Source of the DNA: Thermoflexus sp.
GTDB lineage: Bacteria > Chloroflexota > Anaerolineae > B4-G1 > SLSP01
Assembly (NCBI GenBank): GCA_020722365.1
Contig: DYKY01000002.1
Span: forward strand, 8,266-55,251
Reading direction: 5' to 3'
Length of the DNA: 46,986 nucleotides
Part shown: positions 3,767 to 43,087 of the stretch, one piece after another
Layout of the letters: the number at the start of each line of letters is the position of its first letter
Position numbering within the stretch: position 1 is the first letter of the stretch
The notes under the pieces: generated by a model
Told to the model about the DNA's origin: nothing
The model's database searches: none
Seen by the model: the letters and a program-made list of their open reading frames with translations, nothing else
Made by a program: the position numbers and the translations under genes

Positions 3767-4426
3767 ATGACCTCTGAACTGCATCCTTTTCTCACTGAAG
3801 TCATGAAGTTGCGGGGCGGCAAAGACGTGCTGGAATGTTACCAGTGCGGCACGTGTTCCGCCTCGTGTCCCGCGCTACAGGATATGGAGCACGGGCCGCG
3901 CCGTTTAATGTACATGATCCAAAACGGGATGGAGGAAGAAGTGCTCTCCAGCCCCGATATCTGGCGCTGCGTTTCGTGTTACTCATGCATGAACCGTTGT
4001 CCACGCGGGATCGAAATCACGGTTTTGTTCTCCGAACTGCGCCGTCTTGCTGTACAAAAAGGCTACGTGGCGGATAAGGAAGCGCAGTTCGGGCAGGTGT
4101 TTACTGTGACGTTGGCGCAGCACGGGCGGATGTTCGAGCCGGAACTGTTGATACGCTACTATCTGCGCACTTGGGACGTGAAGGGCATGCTAGGGATGAT
4201 CGTCCCGGGCTTGAAGATGCTGTTGAAAGGCAAAGTGGCGTTCTCCCCGGAGAATATCCCCGCGTCCCAGGAGTTGCGCGATGCCGGCGTTGTTCCGCAA
4301 GTCGATCCTTTCCCCCGCCGGAAATTCAATGACCGCGTTGTTGCTATCGTGACCAGGATATTAGGCCTTGTCGCTGCCAGTGGCAGGTTATTCTCGGGTG
4401 GCAAGAAGGAGACACTCCATGGCTAA
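3767..4426 (+). CDS. hdrC: Heterodisulfide reductase subunit C
   Basis: CYQCGTCSASCP and WRCVSCYSCMNRCPRGI motifs; lies between hdrA and hdrB. Confidence 0.9.
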   Translation: MTSELHPFLTEVMKLRGGKDVLECYQCGTCSASCPALQDMEHGPRRLMYMIQNGMEEEVLSSPDIWRCVSCYSCMNRCPRGIEITVLFSELRRLAVQKGYVADKEAQFGQVFTVTLAQHGRMFEPELLIRYYLRTWDVKGMLGMIVPGLKMLLKGKVAFSPENIPASQELRDAGVVPQVDPFPRRKFNDRVVAIVTRILGLVAASGRLFSGGKKETLHG

Positions 4427-5294
4427 AACTTACGCTTACTATCCCGGATGCAGCCTGAAGTCCACCGCGAAAGAGTACGATATATCTGTGCGTGCCGTCT
4501 TCGCCAAGCTGGACATTGAATTGCACGAGCTTGAGGGATGGACGTGCTGCGGCGCGACCCATTCCGCCATCTATAACGATGACTCGCGTTTCCTGCTCTC
4601 CCTGCGCAACGTGGCGTTGGCGGAGATGCAAGGGTACGATACCATCGTCGCGCCGTGCAGCGCGTGCTATAAGAACCTGCGCCGCGCGGCTAAGCTGGCT
4701 GAAGCCGACAAAACAATCTGTGCCCGGGTGAACGCCGAAATGGAAGAGACCTTCAGTTGTTCCGGTAAGGTCGAAGTGTTACATCCGCTGTATCTCATTT
4801 TGCGGGATTATGGCCTGGACGCTTTGAAGAAGCGGGTGGTGCGCCCGTTGACCGGCCTGAAAGTTGCTTGCTATTACGGGTGTATGCTTACCCGCCCGGC
4901 GGACGAGTTCGACAGCCCAGAGCGCCCCACGGGGATGGACCGGTTGGTCGAGGCGCTGGGCGCTGAGCCGGTGGAGTACGACTACAAGGCCAAGTGCTGC
5001 GGCGGCGCGATGGCGCTTTCGCATGGGGGAACGACCGCACGTATGGCGGGCAATGTGTTAGCCTCGGCCAAGGAGCGCGGTGCGGAAGTGGTGACGTTGG
5101 GGTGTCCGATGTGTCATATGGCGCTCGATCTATACCAGTCGAAGGCCGAGAAGGTGGTGCAGCGTGATCTGGACTTGCCGGTGGTGTTCTTCACGCAGTT
5201 GATGGGCCTGGCGCTCGGCCTCGAACCGGCGCAGTTGGGCTTGCAGCGGCACATTGTCCCGACGGCAAGCGTCGTCGCGCGAGTTGTGGGATGA
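4419..5294 (+). CDS. hdrB: Heterodisulfide reductase subunit B (two CCG domains)
   Basis: YYPGCS, WTCCGA, PCSACY, YYGC, KCCGG, CPMCH; start set at ATG 4419 after AAGGAG RBS. Confidence 0.92.
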   Translation: MAKTYAYYPGCSLKSTAKEYDISVRAVFAKLDIELHELEGWTCCGATHSAIYNDDSRFLLSLRNVALAEMQGYDTIVAPCSACYKNLRRAAKLAEADKTICARVNAEMEETFSCSGKVEVLHPLYLILRDYGLDALKKRVVRPLTGLKVACYYGCMLTRPADEFDSPERPTGMDRLVEALGAEPVEYDYKAKCCGGAMALSHGGTTARMAGNVLASAKERGAEVVTLGCPMCHMALDLYQSKAEKVVQRDLDLPVVFFTQLMGLALGLEPAQLGLQRHIVPTASVVARVVG

Positions 5295-34532: not shown

Positions 34533-35573
34533 CTATTTACTTGCTGACCACGCGCGCGCCGCAGCCAGCAACGCATCGATGTTTTCTGGGCGTGTTCCCG
34601 GTGAAACGCCGCCGCCGAACGAGAGGATCATCCCCCCGCCCGGTGCAGCTTTATCCAGGCATTCCTTCGCCCACTGTGCGACCTCTTCTGGCGTTCCGCG
34701 CACGCCCATATCCAGCGGGGGCACGTTGCCCATCAGCGCAACCCGGTGTCCCATTGCTTCTTTGACCTTGGCGATGTCCACCTCGTGGCTGAAGTTAAAG
34801 ACGTCGAAATTCGCGTCGGCCAGGCTTTCCAGCAGGTGGGGACAAGGGGTGTCGTTGTGATAGATACGGATCAGACCCTCGAATTCATCGAAGATGCGGC
34901 GGAGATGCGGATGGACCATCTTCCCGTAATGGCGCTTCGACACCATGCCGACGAGGTCGTCCAACACCATGATGCCCTCCGGCGCCTTGAGCACGTCCAG
35001 TTGCGCGTGGAGCCAGCGGATGATGGATTCGGTCACCGTCTCCAAAAGTTTACTCGTCTTTTCCGGTTCGGTGACCAGCCCCATCATCAAAGGGGATATG
35101 CCCAATAACCACGAAGCCACCGTCATTGGCCCACGGGCACAGACCATCTTGATGCCCAGGCCTTCGGCCTGCAAACGCGCGTCCATCACTTCGTAGAGGC
35201 GCAATACCAACGGCATGAGGCCATCCTCTTGTGGATTCGCGGGTTTGGCAGTTGCCCAAAAATCCAGGTCCGGTATTAGCGGCTCGATCGAGGGCGGTCG
35301 ATTGTTGAAAAAACGCACCTTGGTGCCAAAGGCTGAAGGCTCGGCCGCCATGCCAAACTCGACCCAAAAGCCGGGAATCCACACAGCGCCGGGGAAACGC
35401 TCCAACAGCCCTTTGTTGATCGTCAACCACTTCTCTGGGAAAAGAAAATAATCCCGCGTATCGATGCCCGCGTAGCCGGGTAGCCATGGGCTGTCCACAA
35501 TCAACCCTACCGGAACCTGTTCCGGCTCACCCAACCGCGCCGCGACTTTGAAATTGTCCCACACTGTGCTCAT
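34533..35573 (-). CDS. Uroporphyrinogen decarboxylase / MtaA-CmuA family protein
   Basis: GPMTVA..G, DD..G.VS, IYHND, LMGNVPP..GTPEEV, GGMILSFGGGV.PGT..ENI; AGGAGG RBS. Confidence 0.85.
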   Translation of the reverse strand: MSTVWDNFKVAARLGEPEQVPVGLIVDSPWLPGYAGIDTRDYFLFPEKWLTINKGLLERFPGAVWIPGFWVEFGMAAEPSAFGTKVRFFNNRPPSIEPLIPDLDFWATAKPANPQEDGLMPLVLRLYEVMDARLQAEGLGIKMVCARGPMTVASWLLGISPLMMGLVTEPEKTSKLLETVTESIIRWLHAQLDVLKAPEGIMVLDDLVGMVSKRHYGKMVHPHLRRIFDEFEGLIRIYHNDTPCPHLLESLADANFDVFNFSHEVDIAKVKEAMGHRVALMGNVPPLDMGVRGTPEEVAQWAKECLDKAAPGGGMILSFGGGVSPGTRPENIDALLAAARAWSASK

Positions 35574-35593
35574 TTTGCTCCTCCTTCCTTCGA

Positions 35594-35625
35594 AAATCGG
35601 CGAATCGACGAATCAGCGAATTAAG
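35594..35625. repeat. Octamer tandem AAATCGGC GAATCGAC GAATCAGC GAATTAAG
   Basis: Same GAATCAGC unit family as 9856-9895. Confidence 0.6.
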
Positions 35626-35673
35626 AAATCCGGTACGACAGAGTATAAGTTCTCTTTGGTGAGATGTCAAAAA

Positions 35674-35946
35674 AGCAATCAGCTATCAGCAATCAGCTAT
35701 CAGCAGTCAGCTATCAGCAGTCAGCTATCAGCAGTCAGCTATCAGCAGTCAGCTATCAGCAATCAGCAATCAGCTATCAGCAGTCAGCTATCAGCAATCA
35801 GCAATCAGCTATCAGCATCCAGCAACCCGTAACCCACAATCCGTAACCCACAACCCACAATCCGTAACCCACAACCCACAACCCGTAACCCACAACCCGT
35901 AACCCACACCCCACAACCCGTAACTCGCAACTCATAACCCGCAACT
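35674..35946. repeat. Compound heptamer array: 20 AGCTATC/AGCARTC units plus 2 degenerate units, then about 17 CGTAACC/CACAACC-type units
   Basis: Counted directly; located between divergent genes. Confidence 0.95.
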
Positions 35947-35951
35947 ATTTC

Positions 35952-35979
35952 TTGCATATCTCCTGCTTTTGCCTATACT
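35952..35979 (+). promoter_or_regulatory. Putative promoter for a leaderless transcript heading the cassette array
   Basis: TTGCAT (35952)-16 bp-TATACT (35974), 6 nt before ATG 35986; no RBS. Confidence 0.55.
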
Positions 35980-35985
35980 CAAAGT

Positions 35986-36826
35986 ATGATTCATCCGCAG
36001 CTTGAGAACAAAGTCATCCTGATTACCGGCGCGAACCACGGCATTGGCGCGGCGACGGCGCGGGCGTTAGCGGCGCAAGGGGCGAAAGTCTTCATTACCT
36101 TCTACCGCGTTCCGTGTCGCTACACGGAACAAGAACTGGTGCAGGCGCTCGACGCCGGGACCGGTGGGGACGCGCTGTACTGCGCGATCCAGCAGCGGAC
36201 CGCCGACGCGCTCGTGGACGACATCCGGGCGCAGGGCGGGCCGCCGTGGCGCTTGAGGCCGACCTTGCTGATCCCGCCACCGTCCCGTTGCTCTTCGACC
36301 GCTGCGAAGCCGAACTCGGTCCGGTGGACGTACTCGTCAACAACCACACCTACTGCGTCCTCGAAACCTTCGACCCGGCCCGCGTCACGGATGAAGAGAG
36401 CGGCGTCCGTTTGCTCACCGCGCCCGTCATCGACGCGCACTTCGCGGTCAATGCGCGCGCCTACGCCCTGCTGATGGCCGAGTATGTCCAACGCTACCTG
36501 AAACGGAACGCGCGCTCAGGCCGCATCATCAACCTGAGCACCGATGCCGCGCACGCCCACGAGTCCAACGTCAGCTACGCCGCCAGCAAGCACGCGATTG
36601 AATCGTACAGCCGTTCGGCGGCTTCGGAACTGGGGCAGTATACGGCATCACCGTCAACATCGTGGCTCCTGGTCCGATCCAGACCGGCTACATCACGCCG
36701 CAGTCGGAAGCGGAGATTGCCGCCGGGACCCCGCTTGGCCGCATCGGCGAACCTGAAGACGTGGCGGACGTCATCGTCTTCTTCGCCTCCGAGCAGGCGC
36801 GATGGCTGACGGGGCAACTGCTGTAG
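35986..36826 (+). pseudogene. SDR-family oxidoreductase with two frameshifts and a truncated 3' end
   Basis: TGANHGIG in frame 1; VLVNN and YAASK in frame 2 after ~36241; GITVNIVAPGPIQT..WLTGQLL* in frame 3 after a TA duplication at ~36640. Confidence 0.88.
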
Positions 36827-36986: not shown

Positions 36987-37268
36987 GTGGAATCGCAATA
37001 TGAAATAATCTGGACTGACTATATGCGTTATAGGGCAGAATTGCGTGGTTTTGAGCTTGCCAGGATTGAAGCTATTGTCAGGTATTCAAATGAGTGGTAT
37101 ATGGATGTCGAGACTGGACGCTCGATCGTAGTTGGACGCATAAATGATATACTGGTGATGGTTCCGTGTGATATTGCACCGGAGGCGATCACGCCCGTCA
37201 CGATTCATGCCACAACGCGCCAGCAGATTAATTTTCGGCTTAAAACAGGGAGATTTACCCATGAGTGA
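36987..37268 (+). CDS. Putative toxin (DUF4258/RelE-like) of a two-gene TA-like module
   Basis: 93 aa, WTDYMRYRAELRG..VTIHATTRQQ; AAGGAG RBS; overlaps the downstream DUF2283 gene. Confidence 0.6.
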   Translation: MESQYEIIWTDYMRYRAELRGFELARIEAIVRYSNEWYMDVETGRSIVVGRINDILVMVPCDIAPEAITPVTIHATTRQQINFRLKTGRFTHE

Positions 37269-37497
37269 AACGCGAATGATGTATTTTGAGAAAGAGGATG
37301 TTTTACATTTAAGTATTTCGGATGAACCCGAAATGGGTAGCGTTGAGTTGGGGCCTAATATCACCGTAGAATTAAATGCCAAGGGGGAAATTATTGGCGT
37401 TGAAATTCTAGCCGCCAGTCATTTCATTCGAGACTCGATTATGGAATCCGTGCAGGCTAAAGTTTTGCGTATCCCCGAACTGCAACCGGCTTGGTGA
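37261..37497 (+). CDS. DUF2283-family protein (putative antitoxin)
   Basis: YFEKEDVLHL..SVELGPNITVELNAKGEIIGVEILAAS; start ATG 37261. Confidence 0.8.
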   Translation: MSETRMMYFEKEDVLHLSISDEPEMGSVELGPNITVELNAKGEIIGVEILAASHFIRDSIMESVQAKVLRIPELQPAW

Positions 37498-37500
37498 TTT

Positions 37501-37971
37501 ATGAACATCGGCATCATCGTCTATTCCCTCACCAACCATACCCTGACGGCGGCTACGCGCCTGAAAGAAAAACTGTCCGCGGATGAGCACGAAGTGACCC
37601 TGGAACGGGCGGAAACCGTCGGCCCGGCGAAGCCGCAGTTCGAGAACGCTGAACTGAAGACAAAGCCCCCGGTTGATGGCTACGACGCGCTGGTGTTTGC
37701 CTGCCCCGTGCGGGGAGGCACGATTCCATCGCCGATGAAGCGCTATCTGGAGCAGATTCCGTCGTTGCAGGATAAGAAAGTGGCGTGTCTGGTCACGCAC
37801 TTCTTCCGGCGGGAGTGGGGGGCCAACCAGGTGCTCGCGGCAATGCAGGCACTCTGCGAATCCAAAGGCGCGACCGTCCGCGGAACGGGCGATGTGCGAT
37901 GGTTCAGCCTGCATCGCAAGCAGCAGATTGCACAGGTTGTTGAGAACGTGAGTCAGTTATATGGCAGTTAA
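37501..37971 (+). CDS. Flavodoxin-like protein
   Basis: IIVYSLTNHT FMN loop, YDALVFACPV, LQDKKVACLVT. Confidence 0.85.
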   Translation: MNIGIIVYSLTNHTLTAATRLKEKLSADEHEVTLERAETVGPAKPQFENAELKTKPPVDGYDALVFACPVRGGTIPSPMKRYLEQIPSLQDKKVACLVTHFFRREWGANQVLAAMQALCESKGATVRGTGDVRWFSLHRKQQIAQVVENVSQLYGS

Positions 37972-38923
37972 CAGAGATAAGCCGGATAGATGGAAAGACG
38001 ATATGGCGCAGTCGGTGGATATGTACAACGACTGGTTTATGCGCTTTGCGCCTGAGGCCTATCGAACTACGCGTGTGCAGACAACCAACGATGTCGAGGC
38101 GACGCTCAAAGCAACCAGGAACCTGATGGATGTCGGGGTGGAGCTACTGAAGACGCGCCCGTCGGTGTTGCCATCACTGCGAATGTGCACTTGTCCACCG
38201 CTGGCTGTGGACCGGTTGATCGGACTCGCCGGTGTATCGGGAAACCTCGTCAAGGTTATGGAAAAGCACAATAGGTTGCCGTTGCGCATGTCTCAGGTTG
38301 AGCTAGACCGTGATCTTGAAAAGATTGGAGCGACTATCGAGAGGATGGCCGACCCAGATATATTCGTCTGGCTGGAACGCGGCAATGATCCGTCGGAACT
38401 GGAGTTGTATCGCGCCGCAACGATTGTCGCAGACCGCTTGTGCGGCGCTGTCGCCAATCCGATCATCCGCAATGCACAGGAAAAGCGCCAGCTTGCCGCA
38501 ATCGGTGAGTGGCTCACGGCTTTGGGCTACCGGAATTTGCCGGCAGGCGAGGGGACGAAGTTCGACGCGATGCAGCCGGGGACATTTTCATTCCGATTGA
38601 ACGTGCCTGTTGAACAGGAAGGCACGGGCAAGACGATCAATATTCCGGTAGATGCCGTTGTTATGCCGAAGACGGCGCGACCAGGCGACCTGCCGTTGCT
38701 GATCGAGGCGAAGTCGGCAGGGGATTTTACGAATGTCAACAAGCGCCGCAAGGAAGAAGCCACGAAGATGAACCAGTTGCGCCGGACTTACGGAAAGGAC
38801 GTGCGGTTCATCCTGTTCCTGTGCGGGTATTTCGACAGCGGGTATCTCGGCTACGAGGCGGCAGAAGGCATCGACTGGGTATGGGAGCACCGTATCGACG
38901 ATCTCCGGGAGTTTGGCCTGTAG
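37961..38923 (+). CDS. Type II restriction endonuclease, XamI family
   Basis: PVD..IEAKSAGD PD-(D/E)XK core; NVNKRRKEEA, GYFDSGYLGYEAAEGIDWVWEHR. Confidence 0.85.
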   Translation: MAVNRDKPDRWKDDMAQSVDMYNDWFMRFAPEAYRTTRVQTTNDVEATLKATRNLMDVGVELLKTRPSVLPSLRMCTCPPLAVDRLIGLAGVSGNLVKVMEKHNRLPLRMSQVELDRDLEKIGATIERMADPDIFVWLERGNDPSELELYRAATIVADRLCGAVANPIIRNAQEKRQLAAIGEWLTALGYRNLPAGEGTKFDAMQPGTFSFRLNVPVEQEGTGKTINIPVDAVVMPKTARPGDLPLLIEAKSAGDFTNVNKRRKEEATKMNQLRRTYGKDVRFILFLCGYFDSGYLGYEAAEGIDWVWEHRIDDLREFGL

Positions 38924-40510
38924 ATGATGACAACAGCGATTGCCGAACTTGAGGCGCGACGACTGGCCTTGCAAGATGCGTTGGACGCGAAGAAAGAAGC
39001 GGCCGAACGGAATAGGATGGGGCAATTTGCGACACCCACTCAATTGGCCGTTGACATTCTGCGGTATGCCAGGGCGCAACTCGGCAAGAGCGAGAACGTG
39101 CGTTTCATTGACCCAGCAATCGGTACGGGAGCGTTCTATTCGGCCCTGCTCGACGTGTTCTCGAAGGAGCGTATCGGTGCGGCGGTCGGGTACGAGATCG
39201 ATCCATACTACGGTGCGCCAGCAGCAGAATTGTGGCGCGACACGGGACTGGATATCCGTCTCGAAGACTTTACACGGGCCGAAGCGCCGGCGGATACCGA
39301 AAAGTTTGATCTGCTGATCTGCAATCCGCCCTATGTACGACATCACCACCTCATCAACGGCGAGAAACAGCGCTTGAAGCTGCGCGCGCAGGATGTCTGC
39401 GGCGTCGAGATCAGCGGGCTGGCCGGGCTGTATTGCTATTTCCTCGGTCTGAGCCACGCGTGGTTGAAAGATGGCGGATTGGCCGGATGGCTTATCCCGA
39501 GCGAATTTATGGATGTGAACTACGGTGTTGCGGTGAAGCGGTATCTGCTCGACAAGGTGACGTTCCTGCACATTCACCGGTTCGACCCCAACGACGTGCA
39601 GTTCAATGATGCGCTTGTATCGTCAGCCGTGGTGTGGTTTCGCAAGGAGCCGCCGTCGCCGGAGCAGCAAGTACGGTTCACTTACGGCGGTTCGCTGCAA
39701 CGGCCGAAGTTGGAACGCCTGGTGCCGGTCGAGACGTTGCGTCGCGATCCGAAGTGGACGCGCTACCCGCTGAAGGAGAGCTACGAACCCACTGAAGGAC
39801 CGGTTCTGAGCGATTTCTTCAAGATCAAGCGTGGCCTGGTTACGGGAAACAACGATTACTTCATCCTGCCGGTCGAGGAAATCGCGCGGCGCGGATTGCC
39901 GATGGAGGCATTCAAGCCGATACTGCCGAGTCCCAGGGACTTGCCGGATGACGAGGTCAAAGCGGACAAAGCAGGCAATCCCATTCTTGAGAAGCAGTTG
40001 TTCCTTCTGGATCCCCCGTGGACCGAAGAGAAAATTAGAAACCATTACCCGAAGTTGTGGGCGTATCTCGAAGAGGGTAAAGCGCAGGGGGTCGCGGAAA
40101 GCTATCTGTGCAGGCATAGAAATCCCTGGTATGCCCAGGAAGATCGCCCGCCGGCGCCATTTGTATGTACTTATCTTGGCCGGAGCGACAAAAAGAACGG
40201 GCGGCCGTTCCGCTTCATCCTGAACCACTCGCAGGCGACGGCCGCGAATGTGTATTTGATGCTCTATCCAAAGTCGCCGCTTGCGCGCGCTCTACAGGAT
40301 AGCCCGGAACTGAAACGGCGGGTTTGGCTGTGTCTGAACGAGATTTCCACGAAGGCGCTGCTCGCTGAAGGCCGCGTCTACGGCGGCGGGCTGCACAAGC
40401 TCGAACCGCGCGAACTTGGCAATGTACCCGCCAGGTTTATACTGGACTTGTTGCCGGATGTTCGCGCGCCAAAGGTCCCTAAACAACTTGGACTCTTTGC
40501 CGGGGCATGA
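38924..40510 (+). CDS. N6-adenine DNA methyltransferase (gamma class), cognate to the XamI-like REase
   Basis: GQFATP, DPAIGTGAF (SAM), CNPPYVRHH, GRVYGGGLHKLEPREL. Confidence 0.9.
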   Translation: MMTTAIAELEARRLALQDALDAKKEAAERNRMGQFATPTQLAVDILRYARAQLGKSENVRFIDPAIGTGAFYSALLDVFSKERIGAAVGYEIDPYYGAPAAELWRDTGLDIRLEDFTRAEAPADTEKFDLLICNPPYVRHHHLINGEKQRLKLRAQDVCGVEISGLAGLYCYFLGLSHAWLKDGGLAGWLIPSEFMDVNYGVAVKRYLLDKVTFLHIHRFDPNDVQFNDALVSSAVVWFRKEPPSPEQQVRFTYGGSLQRPKLERLVPVETLRRDPKWTRYPLKESYEPTEGPVLSDFFKIKRGLVTGNNDYFILPVEEIARRGLPMEAFKPILPSPRDLPDDEVKADKAGNPILEKQLFLLDPPWTEEKIRNHYPKLWAYLEEGKAQGVAESYLCRHRNPWYAQEDRPPAPFVCTYLGRSDKKNGRPFRFILNHSQATAANVYLMLYPKSPLARALQDSPELKRRVWLCLNEISTKALLAEGRVYGGGLHKLEPRELGNVPARFILDLLPDVRAPKVPKQLGLFAGA

Positions 40511-40536
40511 GAGCTTGCTAACAATGGCTTACCGCC

Positions 40537-40713
40537 GTGGTCACGCATTTCTTCCAGCGAGAGTGGGGGGCCAACCAGGTGCTTGCGTCGATGCAGACGC
40601 TTTGTGAATCCAAGGGCGCGACTGTCCGCGGCGTGGGCGATATGCGCTGGTTCAGCTTGCATCGTGAGCAGCAGATCGCGCTGGTTGTTGAGGACTTGAG
40701 TAGGTTGTTTTGA
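40537..40713 (+). pseudogene. Second, diverged copy of the flavodoxin 3' end (58 codons)
   Basis: Gap-free manual alignment to 37789-37962: 144/174 nt identical. Confidence 0.92.
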
Positions 40714-40730
40714 GTTAAGGACTGGTTTTT

Positions 40731-41825
40731 ATGACGACAAGACTGTTTGAGCAAGCCAAAAAGAATAAAGCGGACGAGTTTTACACGCAACTGCCGGATA
40801 TCGAGGCGGAAATGCGCCATTATCGCGAGCAGTTTCGTGGTAAGGTCATTTTTTGCAATTGCGACGATCCGTACGAGAGCAATTTTTTCAAATACTTTGC
40901 GATGAATTTCAATTTCTTGGGTCTCAAAAAGCTGATCGCGACGTGCTATACCGAATCCCCTGTTGTGGGTGAGCAATTGTCGTTGTTTGACGTAAAAAGT
41001 CTCGACATGCCAAACGGAGATGCTAAACTTCCTTACAAAATTGAGATTACTGAAGTCAGGGATGAAAACGCTGACGGTGCGGTTGATCTGGCAGACGTTG
41101 AGTATCTGCTCAAAAACAGAAGAAACACGCTCACGTTGTTGCAGGGCAACGGCGATTTTCGTTCCCCCGAATGTATCGAATTGCTGCAAGAAGCCGATAT
41201 CGTGGCAACCAATCCGCCGTTTTCGTTGTTCCGTGAGTATGTGGCGCAGTTGGTTGAGTATGACAAGAAATTTATCATTATTGGCAGCAAAAACGCTATA
41301 ACGTATAGAGAGATTTTCAAGCTGATACAAGAAAACAGACTTTGGCTCGGTAATGGTTTTCCAAATGGAAATGCTTTTTTTAGAATCCCTGCGGAATATT
41401 CACGCGAATGGGCAAACGGGGTATATGATCCAGAGACAGGGTTAGTGAAATTTCGTAACGTTGGCTGGTTCACGAATTTGGATTTTGAGAAACGCCACGA
41501 ATCCATAACTTTATACAAGCCCTATACTCCCGAAGAATACCCGCGCTATGTCAATTACGACGCTATCGAAGTGTCGAAAACCGCCGAAATCCCCTACGAT
41601 TATGACGGAGAAATGGGCGTTCCAATTACATTCCTCGATAAATACAATCCTGAACAGTTTGAGATTATTGGGTCAAGCAGGCTTGTTGGAAAGCCGATGT
41701 CTCAATTTGCCCAAAAAGGAGCCTATGTAGAGGGTGGCATGAGGTTCTATCTTCGGAATGGGGATGGCACTTATCAACGTCTTTACGACAGGATTGTGAT
41801 CAAGCGGAAAGGCAGTCAACAATGA
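40731..41825 (+). CDS. Adenine-specific DNA methyltransferase, EcoRI family
   Basis: AKKNKADEFYT, CNCDDP.ESNF, GDFRS.EC, TNPPFSLFREY, MGVPITFLDKYNPEQF. Confidence 0.9.
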   Translation: MTTRLFEQAKKNKADEFYTQLPDIEAEMRHYREQFRGKVIFCNCDDPYESNFFKYFAMNFNFLGLKKLIATCYTESPVVGEQLSLFDVKSLDMPNGDAKLPYKIEITEVRDENADGAVDLADVEYLLKNRRNTLTLLQGNGDFRSPECIELLQEADIVATNPPFSLFREYVAQLVEYDKKFIIIGSKNAITYREIFKLIQENRLWLGNGFPNGNAFFRIPAEYSREWANGVYDPETGLVKFRNVGWFTNLDFEKRHESITLYKPYTPEEYPRYVNYDAIEVSKTAEIPYDYDGEMGVPITFLDKYNPEQFEIIGSSRLVGKPMSQFAQKGAYVEGGMRFYLRNGDGTYQRLYDRIVIKRKGSQQ

Positions 41826-42904
41826 AAATCGAATTGCACGAAATCACCGTCCGCGACGTAGCGGGAAACTACGTTGATAACGCCGAAGAAGGCGTCGTAG
41901 GTTATAACGGCAGGCTCAATATCCGCCCGAAATACCAGCGCGAGTTTGTCTATGATGAGAAGAAGCGCAACGCCGTGATGGATACGATTTGCAAAGAATT
42001 TCCGCTCAATGTGATGTATTGGGTAAAAAACGAAGACGGGACTTTTGAAGTTTTGGACGGGCAACAACGGACGATCAGTTTTTGCCAGTACGTCAAAGGC
42101 GATTTTTCCGTAGACAATCGCGCCTTTCACAACCTCACGAACACCGAACAAGAGCAGATATTAAACTATAAGCTGATGGTCTATTTCTGCGAGGGCAACG
42201 ATAAGGAGAAACTGGATTGGTTCAGAATCATCAATATTGCCGGCGAAAGGCTCACCGACCAGGAATTAAGGAACGCTGTCTATACCGGAACCTGGCTGAC
42301 CAGCGCCAAATCCATCTTCAGCAAAAGCAACTGCGCGGCGTATCTTTTAGCCAAAGACTATGTGAATGGCTCGCCGATACGTCAAGAAATCCTCGAAACG
42401 GCTTTAGGTTGGATTTCAAACGGCGAGATTGAAAAATACATGTCCATTCACCAACACGACCCCAATGCGAATGAGTTATGGATATATTTCAGGAATGTGA
42501 TTGAATGGGTCAAACTCACCTTTACGACCTACCGCCGGGAAATGAAGGGCATTAACTGGGGCAGTCTGTATGGTCAATTCAAAGGTGATATGTTTGACAC
42601 GCAACAGTTAGAGCGGGAAATACAAGCTCTGATGACGGATGATGATGTCACAGCCAAGAAGGGCATCTATCCGTATGTACTGACTCGCAACGAAAAATAC
42701 TTGAATGTTCGCGCTTTTACCGACAGTCAAAAAAGAGCGGCATACGAAAGGCAGAAAGGCATCTGTGTAAGATGCGGCAAACACTTTGAATTGCGCGACA
42801 TGGAAGCAGACCATATTACTCCCTGGCATCTTGGCGGAAAAACAGTACCAGAGAACTGTCAAATGCTTTGCATGGAGTGCAATCGGACAAAGTCTGGCAA
42901 ATAA
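41822..42904 (+). CDS. DUF262 (ParB/Srx-like, GmrSD-type) + HNH endonuclease
   Basis: PKYQREFVY, LDGQQR, F..IN..G..L; C-terminal CVRC..EADHITPW..GGKT..NCQMLCMECN. Confidence 0.88.
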   Translation: MKIELHEITVRDVAGNYVDNAEEGVVGYNGRLNIRPKYQREFVYDEKKRNAVMDTICKEFPLNVMYWVKNEDGTFEVLDGQQRTISFCQYVKGDFSVDNRAFHNLTNTEQEQILNYKLMVYFCEGNDKEKLDWFRIINIAGERLTDQELRNAVYTGTWLTSAKSIFSKSNCAAYLLAKDYVNGSPIRQEILETALGWISNGEIEKYMSIHQHDPNANELWIYFRNVIEWVKLTFTTYRREMKGINWGSLYGQFKGDMFDTQQLEREIQALMTDDDVTAKKGIYPYVLTRNEKYLNVRAFTDSQKRAAYERQKGICVRCGKHFELRDMEADHITPWHLGGKTVPENCQMLCMECNRTKSGK

Positions 42905-42925: not shown

Positions 42926-43087
42926 GCTCTCGCAGCCGTGCTCAGGGATTTCAACCACCTCGTTCTGGAAGATGTTCCCATCCCTGAACCGAAATTGGGG
43001 GAAGTCGTTGTCTGCATCAAGGCGTGCGGCATTTGCGCTACCGATTACAAAGCGATTAATGGAATTTGGTGTAGTGTGGATTGTTAA
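42926..43087 (+). pseudogene. 5' fragment of a Zn-dependent (MDR) alcohol dehydrogenase
   Basis: Manual translation LAAVLRDFNHLVLEDVPIPEPKLGEVVVCIKACGICATDYKAING then unrelated sequence and a stop; no ATG. Confidence 0.8.

Follow-up and report, generated by a model that had tools for sequence, protein, structure and literature searches.

Elements that integrate within a protein gene and bring a substitute 3' end are known from the icd gene of E. coli, where both e14 and phage 21 encode an integrase and carry the gene end in attP. Insertion of restriction-modification (R-M) genes with a long target duplication was reportedly described by Nobusato et al. in 2000. Integron cassettes can insert at secondary G|TT sites, and their attC site folds into an imperfect hairpin that has bulged bases and is bounded by ..AAC and GTT.. 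boxes. The locus described here lies in a stretch of 46,986 nt from Thermoflexus sp. (GenBank assembly GCA_020722365.1, contig DYKY01000002.1), hereafter the window, in which a cassette (X) with a XamI-family type II R-M pair separates two diverged copies of the 3' end of a flavodoxin-like gene, flav. R-M cassettes are known to settle in genomes in a comparable manner, of which the structure is an unusual form; it is not an integrase-type island. As with e14 and phage 21, a diverged in-frame second 3' end lies beyond the insert and the gene stays whole, but here there is no recombinase and the cassette occurs elsewhere without flav sequence. Integron gene cassettes share with X the G|TTAGCGGGC start and the ..TAAC to GTT.. 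hairpin end of its relatives on three metagenome contigs, as well as a right junction at a target G|TT in a sister species, and integrases are common in the genus; the window cassette differs from them in lying outside an array, in having its hairpin cut after the first arm and its start lost, and in belonging to a genome without an integron integrase. Defence systems as cassettes of sedentary chromosomal integrons are the subject of a preprint (bioRxiv 10.1101/2024.07.02.601686). In three rows of Table 2 of Furuta, Abe, and Kobayashi 2010 (PMC2853133), the repeats around R-M insertions measure 46–47 bp with 44/46 to 47/47 identity. The present locus resembles the cases in that article in that only R and M lie between long direct target repeats, no mobility gene is present, and relatives hold the target once without the insert. 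It differs from them in that the repeats are 174 bp long, 83% identical, coding, and allelic, in that the insert has ends like those of integron cassettes, and in that a reciprocal deletion exists in a sister species.

Anatomy of the Locus

The genome of the window (G000) is a metagenome bin of 249 contigs, of which the window is contig 149. It was compared with six genomes of the same genus in which the locus between flav and ecfA was mapped (G002, G003, G005, G007, G010, and G011). The flav gene (37501..37971, + strand) is intact and encodes 156 amino acids (aa), with weak scores for the Pfam families FMN_red (1.6e-6) and Flavodoxin_5 (3.3e-5); its 397 homologues at E<=1e-20 carry source names of the flavodoxin family or NAD(P)H-dependent oxidoreductase type and come from Anaerolineae. 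Copy 1 (B1, 37789..37962, +) comprises flav codons 97–154 and is part of the working gene. Copy 2 (B2, 40537..40713, +) is a flav 3' end with its stop, a displaced remnant that is out of frame with the methyltransferase (MTase) gene before it. The initial annotation, made from the letters alone, had called this pair, and pairwise alignment bears out its counts: 37789–37962 and 40537–40710 are identical at 144/174 nt, without gaps, with 30 mismatches, and with both copies in the flavodoxin frame. The true likeness starts one base later than proposed, at 37790/40538 (first base C versus G), and fades in the left copy at ~37957–37960. The mismatches fall on 10 first, 5 second, and 15 third codon positions; as also claimed, 14 codons differ only synonymously and copy 2 stays open to the TGA at 40711–40713. 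Twelve residues are changed (46/58 aa identical), and the Nei-Gojobori method gives dS 0.61, dN 0.11, and dN/dS 0.18. The longest identical run is 23 nt. The 60 nt on either side of the copies are unrelated (14/60 and 16/60 matches), 19,847 random pairs of 174-nt segments of the window had a mean of 44.4 matches (sd 6.2, maximum 70), and in a repeat search of the window the pair came first with 169 nt, followed by a family of 33 nt.

Between the copies lies cassette X (37958..40536, +), delimited by blastn as the stretch common to G002 (37958–40521 at 85.0%), G011 (38166–40718 at 85.7%), and the metagenome contig L038 (37959–40537 at 77.4%). The insert is 2.57 kb long, and R and M are its only long frames matching a family. 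The restriction endonuclease (REase) has 320 aa (37961..38923, +) and matches Pfam RE_XamI at 7.7e-119 over positions 2–256 of 256 as well as PADLOC REase_II at 5.9e-110. The adjoining N6-adenine DNA MTase has 528 aa (38924..40510, +) and is of the Eco57I/N6_Mtase type (Pfam Eco57I 6.6e-13, N6_Mtase 1.1e-5; PADLOC MTase_II 1.6e-139), with DPAIGTGAF and NPPY in its translation. The full-length REase match and the adjoining adenine MTase define a XamI-family pair; its GC content of 57% is that of its surroundings. The cassette leader is reduced to a few bases ahead of the REase ATG at 37961, which overlaps the flav stop. Because the left copy runs straight into the REase start codon, the R-M genes are probably read from the flav transcript, and the cassette is probably without a promoter of its own. 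No recombinase gene was found within 37958–40536 or beside it by frames and Pfam, and the three tyrosine recombinases of G000 are on contigs other than the window's.

Copy 2 is followed by a second module, formed by an EcoRI-type adenine MTase of 364 aa (40731..41825, +; Pfam EcoRI_methylase 7.6e-141, PADLOC MTase_II 1.4e-116) and, as its partner REase, a 360-aa protein with DUF262 (GmrSD_N) and HNH nuclease domains (41822..42904, +; Pfam GmrSD_N 6.2e-20, HNH 7.2e-14). The latter matches PADLOC REase_II PDLC03418 at 1.1e-140 over its whole length. The locus is a tandem of two complete type II R-M pairs, and the annotated succession of a different restriction-type module after each copy is correct. 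The GC content of this second pair, EcoRI-type MTase included, is 45% against 57% for the window. The joint between copy 2 and this second module is identical to the joint of the intact gene in G005, with the same 18-nt spacer. XamI cuts GTCGAC; this site occurs seven times in the window and not in flav, and no recognition site shared by the two breakpoints defined below is evident.

The Two Copies Are Different Alleles of flav

Over the 174 nt, copy 1 and copy 2 are 82.8% identical, and the working orthologues of the genus are 77–89% identical to each other with dN/dS of 0.09–0.42. In a comparison of the window's own Flav protein with the 30 closest collection proteins (31 sequences), the best working allele matches copy 1 at 50/58 and copy 2 at 51/58 residues, both above the match between the copies; copy 2 of G011 matches the working allele P0004 at 52/58. 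Each copy thus resembles some working allele more than it resembles the other copy, indicating that the two are different alleles. The divergence is that seen between species, in line with the annotation's view that this is not a fresh target-site duplication. Copy 1 and copy 2 both show the variation of working alleles; dN/dS is 0.09–0.26 for copy 2 against such alleles and 0.18 between the copies. Copy 2 has one change (V36M) among 19 residues that are invariant in nine working proteins, and copy 2 of G011 likewise has one change at a residue invariant in these nine. Both dead copies are free of indels and stops. The numbers of unique states per 174 nt are 7 for copy 1, 6 for copy 2, and 7 for copy 2 of G011, and the terminal branches, with small counts, hold 4 nonsynonymous and 2–3 synonymous changes in the dead copies and 1–7 and 2–5 in the working genes. 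The dead copies of the window and G011 differ from each other at 33 positions (dN/dS 0.30), most of them variable among working alleles. The few unique states, the lack of indels and stops, and the location of the differences at polymorphic sites indicate that the dead copies have drifted for a shorter time than the cassette copies, which are 14–16% apart between species, have been separated. The dead copies were either displaced late or are still exchanging with incoming flav DNA.

The stretch that occurs twice is bounded in flav coordinates by two breakpoints, P1 at nt 288–290 and P2 at nt ~453–459, where the G|TT of codons 152/153 lies. A single old entry of the Kobayashi type, in which staggered breaks at P1 and P2 duplicated the target in situ, would have left identical copies that later diverged and were both patched by homologous exchange with other alleles. 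All defining features given by Furuta et al. (PMC2853133) are found here: R and M inside, an insert under 20 kb, repeats over 30 bp (169–174 bp), no mobile-element gene, and a single-copy target without insert in G003, G005, G007, and G010. The 17% between the copies is also close to the distance of the cassette between species, and a sister relation of copy 1 and copy 2 is not rejected (p 0.21) by the approximately unbiased (AU) test on the star-shaped 174-nt tree of the flav 3' end, in which groups were named after the data had been seen. Such a useless copy 2 should, however, have drifted at the silent rate (dS ~0.5–0.6 between species), whereas it holds only 6 unique states, no indel or stop, and the low dN/dS against working alleles given above. 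The two copy 2s, with the same junction, differ mostly at polymorphic sites, and a single clade of copy 1, copy 2, and copy 2 of G011 is disfavored (AU p 0.019, groups again named post hoc). The repeats at 144/174 are alleles and not near-identical copies made at insertion as in the three rows of Table 2 (PMC2853133), and one entry leaves unexplained why G002 kept cassette ends that G000 lost, and the reverse. Taken together, we regard an in-situ duplication as possible but doubtful.

The initial annotation had proposed that incoming DNA replaced the 3' end of the gene and that its own cassette displaced the old end, as in integrative islands that restore a target gene, and had suggested a test for a chimera breakpoint near 37790. 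Two alleles are indeed present. There is no signal of a breakpoint near 37790: the relatives fall in the same order of identity to the 5' part of flav as to copy 1, G007 coming first in each case (84.4% and 83.3%). For copy 2, the closest genome is G005 (85.1%), where flav directly adjoins the second module, which leans against the proposed direction of replacement, though by a margin of only 1–3 bases; pairwise identities, the 174-nt tree, and the protein comparisons lack the resolution to tell which copy is native. Recombination at two fixed breakpoints probably joined the copies. The restoring-island comparison falls, given the lack of a recombinase, the absence of flav at 0/80 metagenome and 0/3 other-genus cassette loci, a cassette that starts within the last codons of the gene, and the reciprocal deletion in G002. 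A related possibility is that a unit of flav 3' end plus cassette moves as a circle or an ends-in fragment and integrates by RecA-type recombination in the 174-nt homology, copy 1 becoming the new gene end and the resident end being pushed downstream as copy 2; in its strict version, a site-specific recombinase would act on an attP holding the gene end. The geometry fits, and the copies share the identical 23-nt run. Moreover, X meets flav nt 290 at one and the same junction in G000, in G011, and in a minor strain found in the source run, although their copy 2 alleles differ, as they should if copy 2 derives mostly from the recipient. Against such a unit, no recombinase gene lies in or beside the insert, flav is next to the cassette in none of the 80 metagenome loci and none of the 3 loci from other genera, and there is no discontinuity at 37790. 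The deletion form of G002 cannot arise by this route. In addition, the window's Flav ends in ..ENVSQLYGS and its relatives in ..SRLF or ..SQLF, and this fused YGS tail is found in the window's protein alone among the 31 closest sequences. We therefore consider a mobile unit of this kind unlikely.

The Insert Is a Probable Integron-Type Cassette

Relatives of the XamI-family REase were found at 80 metagenome loci, 47 of which had enough flank for cassette ends to be evaluated. The closest is L038 (87% aa and 77% nt identity), which shares with the genus copies 15 nt past the MTase stop region that have the look of filler in the window but represent the cassette's own trailer (40516–40536); the leader TTAGCGGGCAAGG is common to L038 and G002. 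In 3 of the 47 evaluable loci (L038, L044, and L073), the cassette ends are GTTAGCGGGC ... GCCCGCTAAC, with the start at G|TTAGCGGGC, and a 65–75-nt imperfect hairpin running from ..TAAC to GTT.. follows the MTase gene. The G|TT start is complementary to the cassette's own 3' box in these three loci and in G002 and is lost in the window; among 300 mismatched pairs used as a control, 3 reached 10 nt of complementarity and none exceeded it. Bottom-strand folds of the attC-like sites gave z values of -4.4, -3.5, -3.7, -3.0, and -1.4. The window retains a remnant of such a site (40516..40536, +), which consists of GCTAAC and AATGGCTTACCGCCG (R'' and L'') when aligned with the full sites of L038, L044, and L073. 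Since only the first arm of the site is left, the cut falling at the expected beginning of the loop, no fold forms here (z +1.28). A home-made scan for AAC..GTT boxes and DNA folds was uninformative, as its strict form gave 0 hits in the window and its loose form many matches in coding DNA while missing the L038 sites. Of the 11 other genomes of the genus, 6 (among them G002) encode an integron integrase scoring above the NCBIfam cut-off, as do 18 of 71 genomes of the family. The hairpin features match those of attC sites, and the insert is probably an integron-type gene cassette.

On L038, small overlapping gene pairs flank the R-M cassette on both sides (860–1430 and 4385–5121). A third partial repeat copy lies at ~5145 and an 86-nt repeat occurs at 4169 and 5201, giving this contig the look of a cassette array.

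Junctions in Related Genomes and Metagenomes

The flav-ecfA interval is a variable, R-M-rich spot in this Anaerolineae genus. Four genomes (G003, G005, G007, and G010) hold one flav and no XamI_R. A 94-aa gene lies between flav and ecfA in G003, two unknown genes separate flav from the ATPase gene in G007, and a 746-aa MTase fusion does so in G010; in G005, flav is directly joined to the EcoRI-type MTase and the contig then ends. The G011 contig starts inside the REase gene and continues with the rest of X, copy 2, the second module, and the ecfA-type ATPase. In G002, a decayed internal flav fragment (codons ~57–96) is followed by X, the last 12–14 nt of flav with the stop, DUF5678, and ecfA. 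XamI_R occurs in 3 of the 12 genomes of the genus (G000 included) and in 6 of 71 family genomes, and in other genera it is not beside flav.

The junction of the X trailer with flav nt 290 is base for base the same in G000 and G011. The left junction of G002 consists of flav up to nt 288, 4 nt, and the complete cassette start TTAGCGGGCAAGG; its right junction reads ..AAGCAAG|TTGTTTTGAGTT, the last 12–14 nt of flav, and lies at the target G|TT, with a remnant of the cassette hairpin joined to TTGTTTTGA at P2. The left junction of G000 is also at P2 (..AGTCAG|TTATATGG). These junctions indicate that P1 and P2 are each used once per side, within 1–5 nt. The stretch between them is present twice in the window and absent in G002, where the cassette replaces the same ~165 nt. 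The cassette start is kept in G002 and lost in G000, the hairpin arm is kept in G000 and G011 and lost in G002, and as each form keeps an end that the other has lost, homologous recombination alone cannot convert one into the other. The distances among the three copies of X are equal (86.1, 84.6, and 84.3% identity), indicating that the events are about as old as the species. No crossover or mosaic signal was detected inside the cassette, the three copies forming a star with 51, 42, and 39 informative sites for the three pairings.

P1 falls in the loop of a 5-bp inverted repeat (GCGTG-TCTGGT-CACGC, 37783..37798) that was found in a terminator scan and is also present in the G010 and G003 folds. 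An attC-like fold of the repeated stretch itself, with P1 paired to P2, was considered and rejected, as eight working flav alleles have no common P1–P2 pairing (z from +0.3 to -3.7 on the top strand and from +1.3 to -3.3 on the bottom strand). Of two database proteins, P0061 is identical to P0004 in its first 102 residues and then continues as the flav 3' end in another frame; the change comes just after LVTHFF, a few codons beyond P1, and reflects a frameshifted allele or a sequencing error. In G011 (contig C50, locus L022), a ~106-nt hairpin element lies at ~2546–2660 between the stop of copy 2 and the start of the EcoRI-type MTase. It reads GGTAAC TATTCAGG... ...CTGAATA GTTGCG with a fold of -24.4 kcal/mol, is absent from the window and G005, and has a copy of the flav end on either side (TTGTTTTGAG and TTGCGTTTTGAG). 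It has the appearance of a solo attC-like site located at the G|TT that marks P2.

Other samples were represented by the assembled contigs of four runs. In the Logan assembly of a biofilm metagenome, the probable source run, 37400–40900 lies within one 9,731-nt contig with 0 differences; being built from the same data as the window assembly, this contig is not independent support. In a minor contig of the run, from a second strain, the same trailer of the cassette leads into a different flav allele. A near-identical strain, with 2 differences in 89 nt and 0 in 336 nt, occurs in a hot-spring metagenome that belongs to another study (run X2). Aligned to window 37730–39160, this strain lacks ~980 nt, which take in the remainder of copy 1 and the greater part of the REase gene, and retains the MTase; the joint lies at a microhomology patch, and the strain looks like a case of a restriction gene shed while the methylase stays. 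The same run has a 91%-identical relative in which the MTase is followed by a flav 3' end. Neither an empty-site joint, which would skip ~2,748 nt, nor a circle joint is listed in the four runs; as contigs drop rare forms, this gives no information on excision.

These contigs also bear on a purely technical account, in which two co-occurring strains, one with X after a whole flav and one with X before the remnant, were joined by assembly through the 2.5-kb cassette. The genome is a binned metagenome, the cassette is longer than a short-read insert, and the source run does hold a minor strain with another copy 2 allele. Against an artifact, the 9.7-kb Logan contig is the same with 0 differences and the Logan assembly shows no alternative left or right junction at the cassette end. 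The right half occurs by itself in G011. In the near-identical hot-spring strain, a single contig of 614 nt runs from the 5' part and the beginning of copy 1 over the deletion into the MTase. An assembly chimera is accordingly very improbable.

Proposed History of the Locus

The reading that we put forward, and to which we give an even chance, is that the cassette was caught outside an integron in the last third of flav and that the heteroallelic copies were joined by recombination at P1 and P2. In this history, the cassette would have sat at P1 on one chromosome and at P2 on another, and a crossover within the cassette between the two forms would have produced a duplication, seen in the window and at least in the right side of G011, and a deletion, seen in G002. 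The presence of this reciprocal product in G002 makes a cassette crossover the simplest single scheme. The order of X followed by a flav 3' end recurs in the second strain of the source run and in the 91%-identical relative. An integron integrase would be the agent of the insertion at P2, and the alleles would have been drawn from a recombining pool of flav alleles with no cassette-borne recombinase involved. With the left copy the working gene is complete; the right copy is a dead gene end, adjoining the older, low-GC R-M module.

Several observations weigh against this history. That one cassette should have entered the same gene twice, at points 170 nt or less apart, is a heavy demand, and among the genomes compared none was found to have a parental form, in which the cassette would occupy P1 or P2 alone. 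The left junction of the window is not a clean G|TT start, ~25 nt of the leader present in G002 and L038 being gone, and the last 19 nt of copy 1, counted by eye, resemble both the flav end (14/19) and the leader (13/18). Neither protein nor DNA queries recovered the left side of the G011 cassette from a bin that is 81% complete. G000 has no integron integrase (best match 73.6 bits, cut-off 265), the window shows no complete attC-like site that could be recognized, and the attC likeness was judged by comparison with a consensus. On the star-shaped tree, a sister relation is rejected neither for the pair of copy 1 and copy 2 (p 0.21) nor for that of the two copy 2s (p 0.18). One insertion at P2, followed by two illegitimate breakage events recurring at the fragile hairpin of P1, would fit the junctions as well.

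If the crossover history is extended, the flav end would be a landing pad, with the G|TT of codons 152/153 serving as a recurrent secondary site for defence cassettes that integron integrases drop away from the integron. This G|TT is the junction in G002, it lies beside the solo attC-like hairpin of G011, and it was probably used in the window as well. We consider a general landing pad improbable at present. If true, the heteroallelic repeats would make the R-M cassette an integrase-free unit that spreads between species by ordinary homologous recombination and leaves the host gene whole.

Neighboring Genes

On the + strand, the order is DUF2283, flav, XamI-family REase, N6-adenine MTase, copy 2, EcoRI-type MTase, and the DUF262 and HNH gene, after which come DUF5678, an aspartyl-protease-like gene, and a fused ECF-type ATPase. 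The DUF2283 protein (37168–37497) is 98.7% identical over 78 aa to its counterpart in G007 (L018, 8355–8588), and the genes around it are 84–92% identical between the two genomes, which suggests recent exchange or strong constraint. A 93-aa frame without a family match (36987–37268) lies upstream of the DUF2283 gene and overlaps it, and the two may form a toxin-antitoxin-like pair. Further upstream, a short-chain dehydrogenase gene (35986–36826) is split into three overlapping frames of 162, 231, and 54 aa, corresponding to one 289-aa frame in G005; it is either a pseudogene with two frameshifts or the product of assembly errors. Between this gene and a uroporphyrinogen-decarboxylase-like gene, a tandem repeat (35548–35960) has low GC content and strong skew, with reiterated frames of the SAIS(Y/N)QQ type on one strand and of the GCGLRVVG type on the other. 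Downstream of the second module, an orphan frame of 49 codons (42929–43087, MLRDFNHLVLEDVPIPEPKLGEVVVCIKACGICATDYK..) has no match in Pfam. It resembles the N terminus of zinc alcohol dehydrogenases, and over 123 nt it has 89% identity with DNA that immediately precedes the ATPase gene in G007. The frame is a gene remnant that marks the right edge of the variable spot.

Discussion

Long direct repeats around R-M genes have hitherto been taken for duplications that arise during insertion through an unknown, break-dependent process. At the flav locus, the repeats are clearly two alleles, the duplication and the reciprocal deletion survive in sister species, and the inserted unit can be traced to integron-type cassettes. 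The parts of the locus, a type II R-M pair, cassette ends, and a hot spot, are ordinary, and no principle is changed by their combination. The locus agrees with a broader view in which R-M genes occur as cassettes and in which homologous and illegitimate recombination reshape defence hot spots. It connects three subjects that are mostly considered separately, namely the pools of integron cassettes, the mobility of R-M genes that lack mobility genes, and homologous exchange where defence genes cluster in hot spots, and it provides a concrete place at which the steps can be tested.

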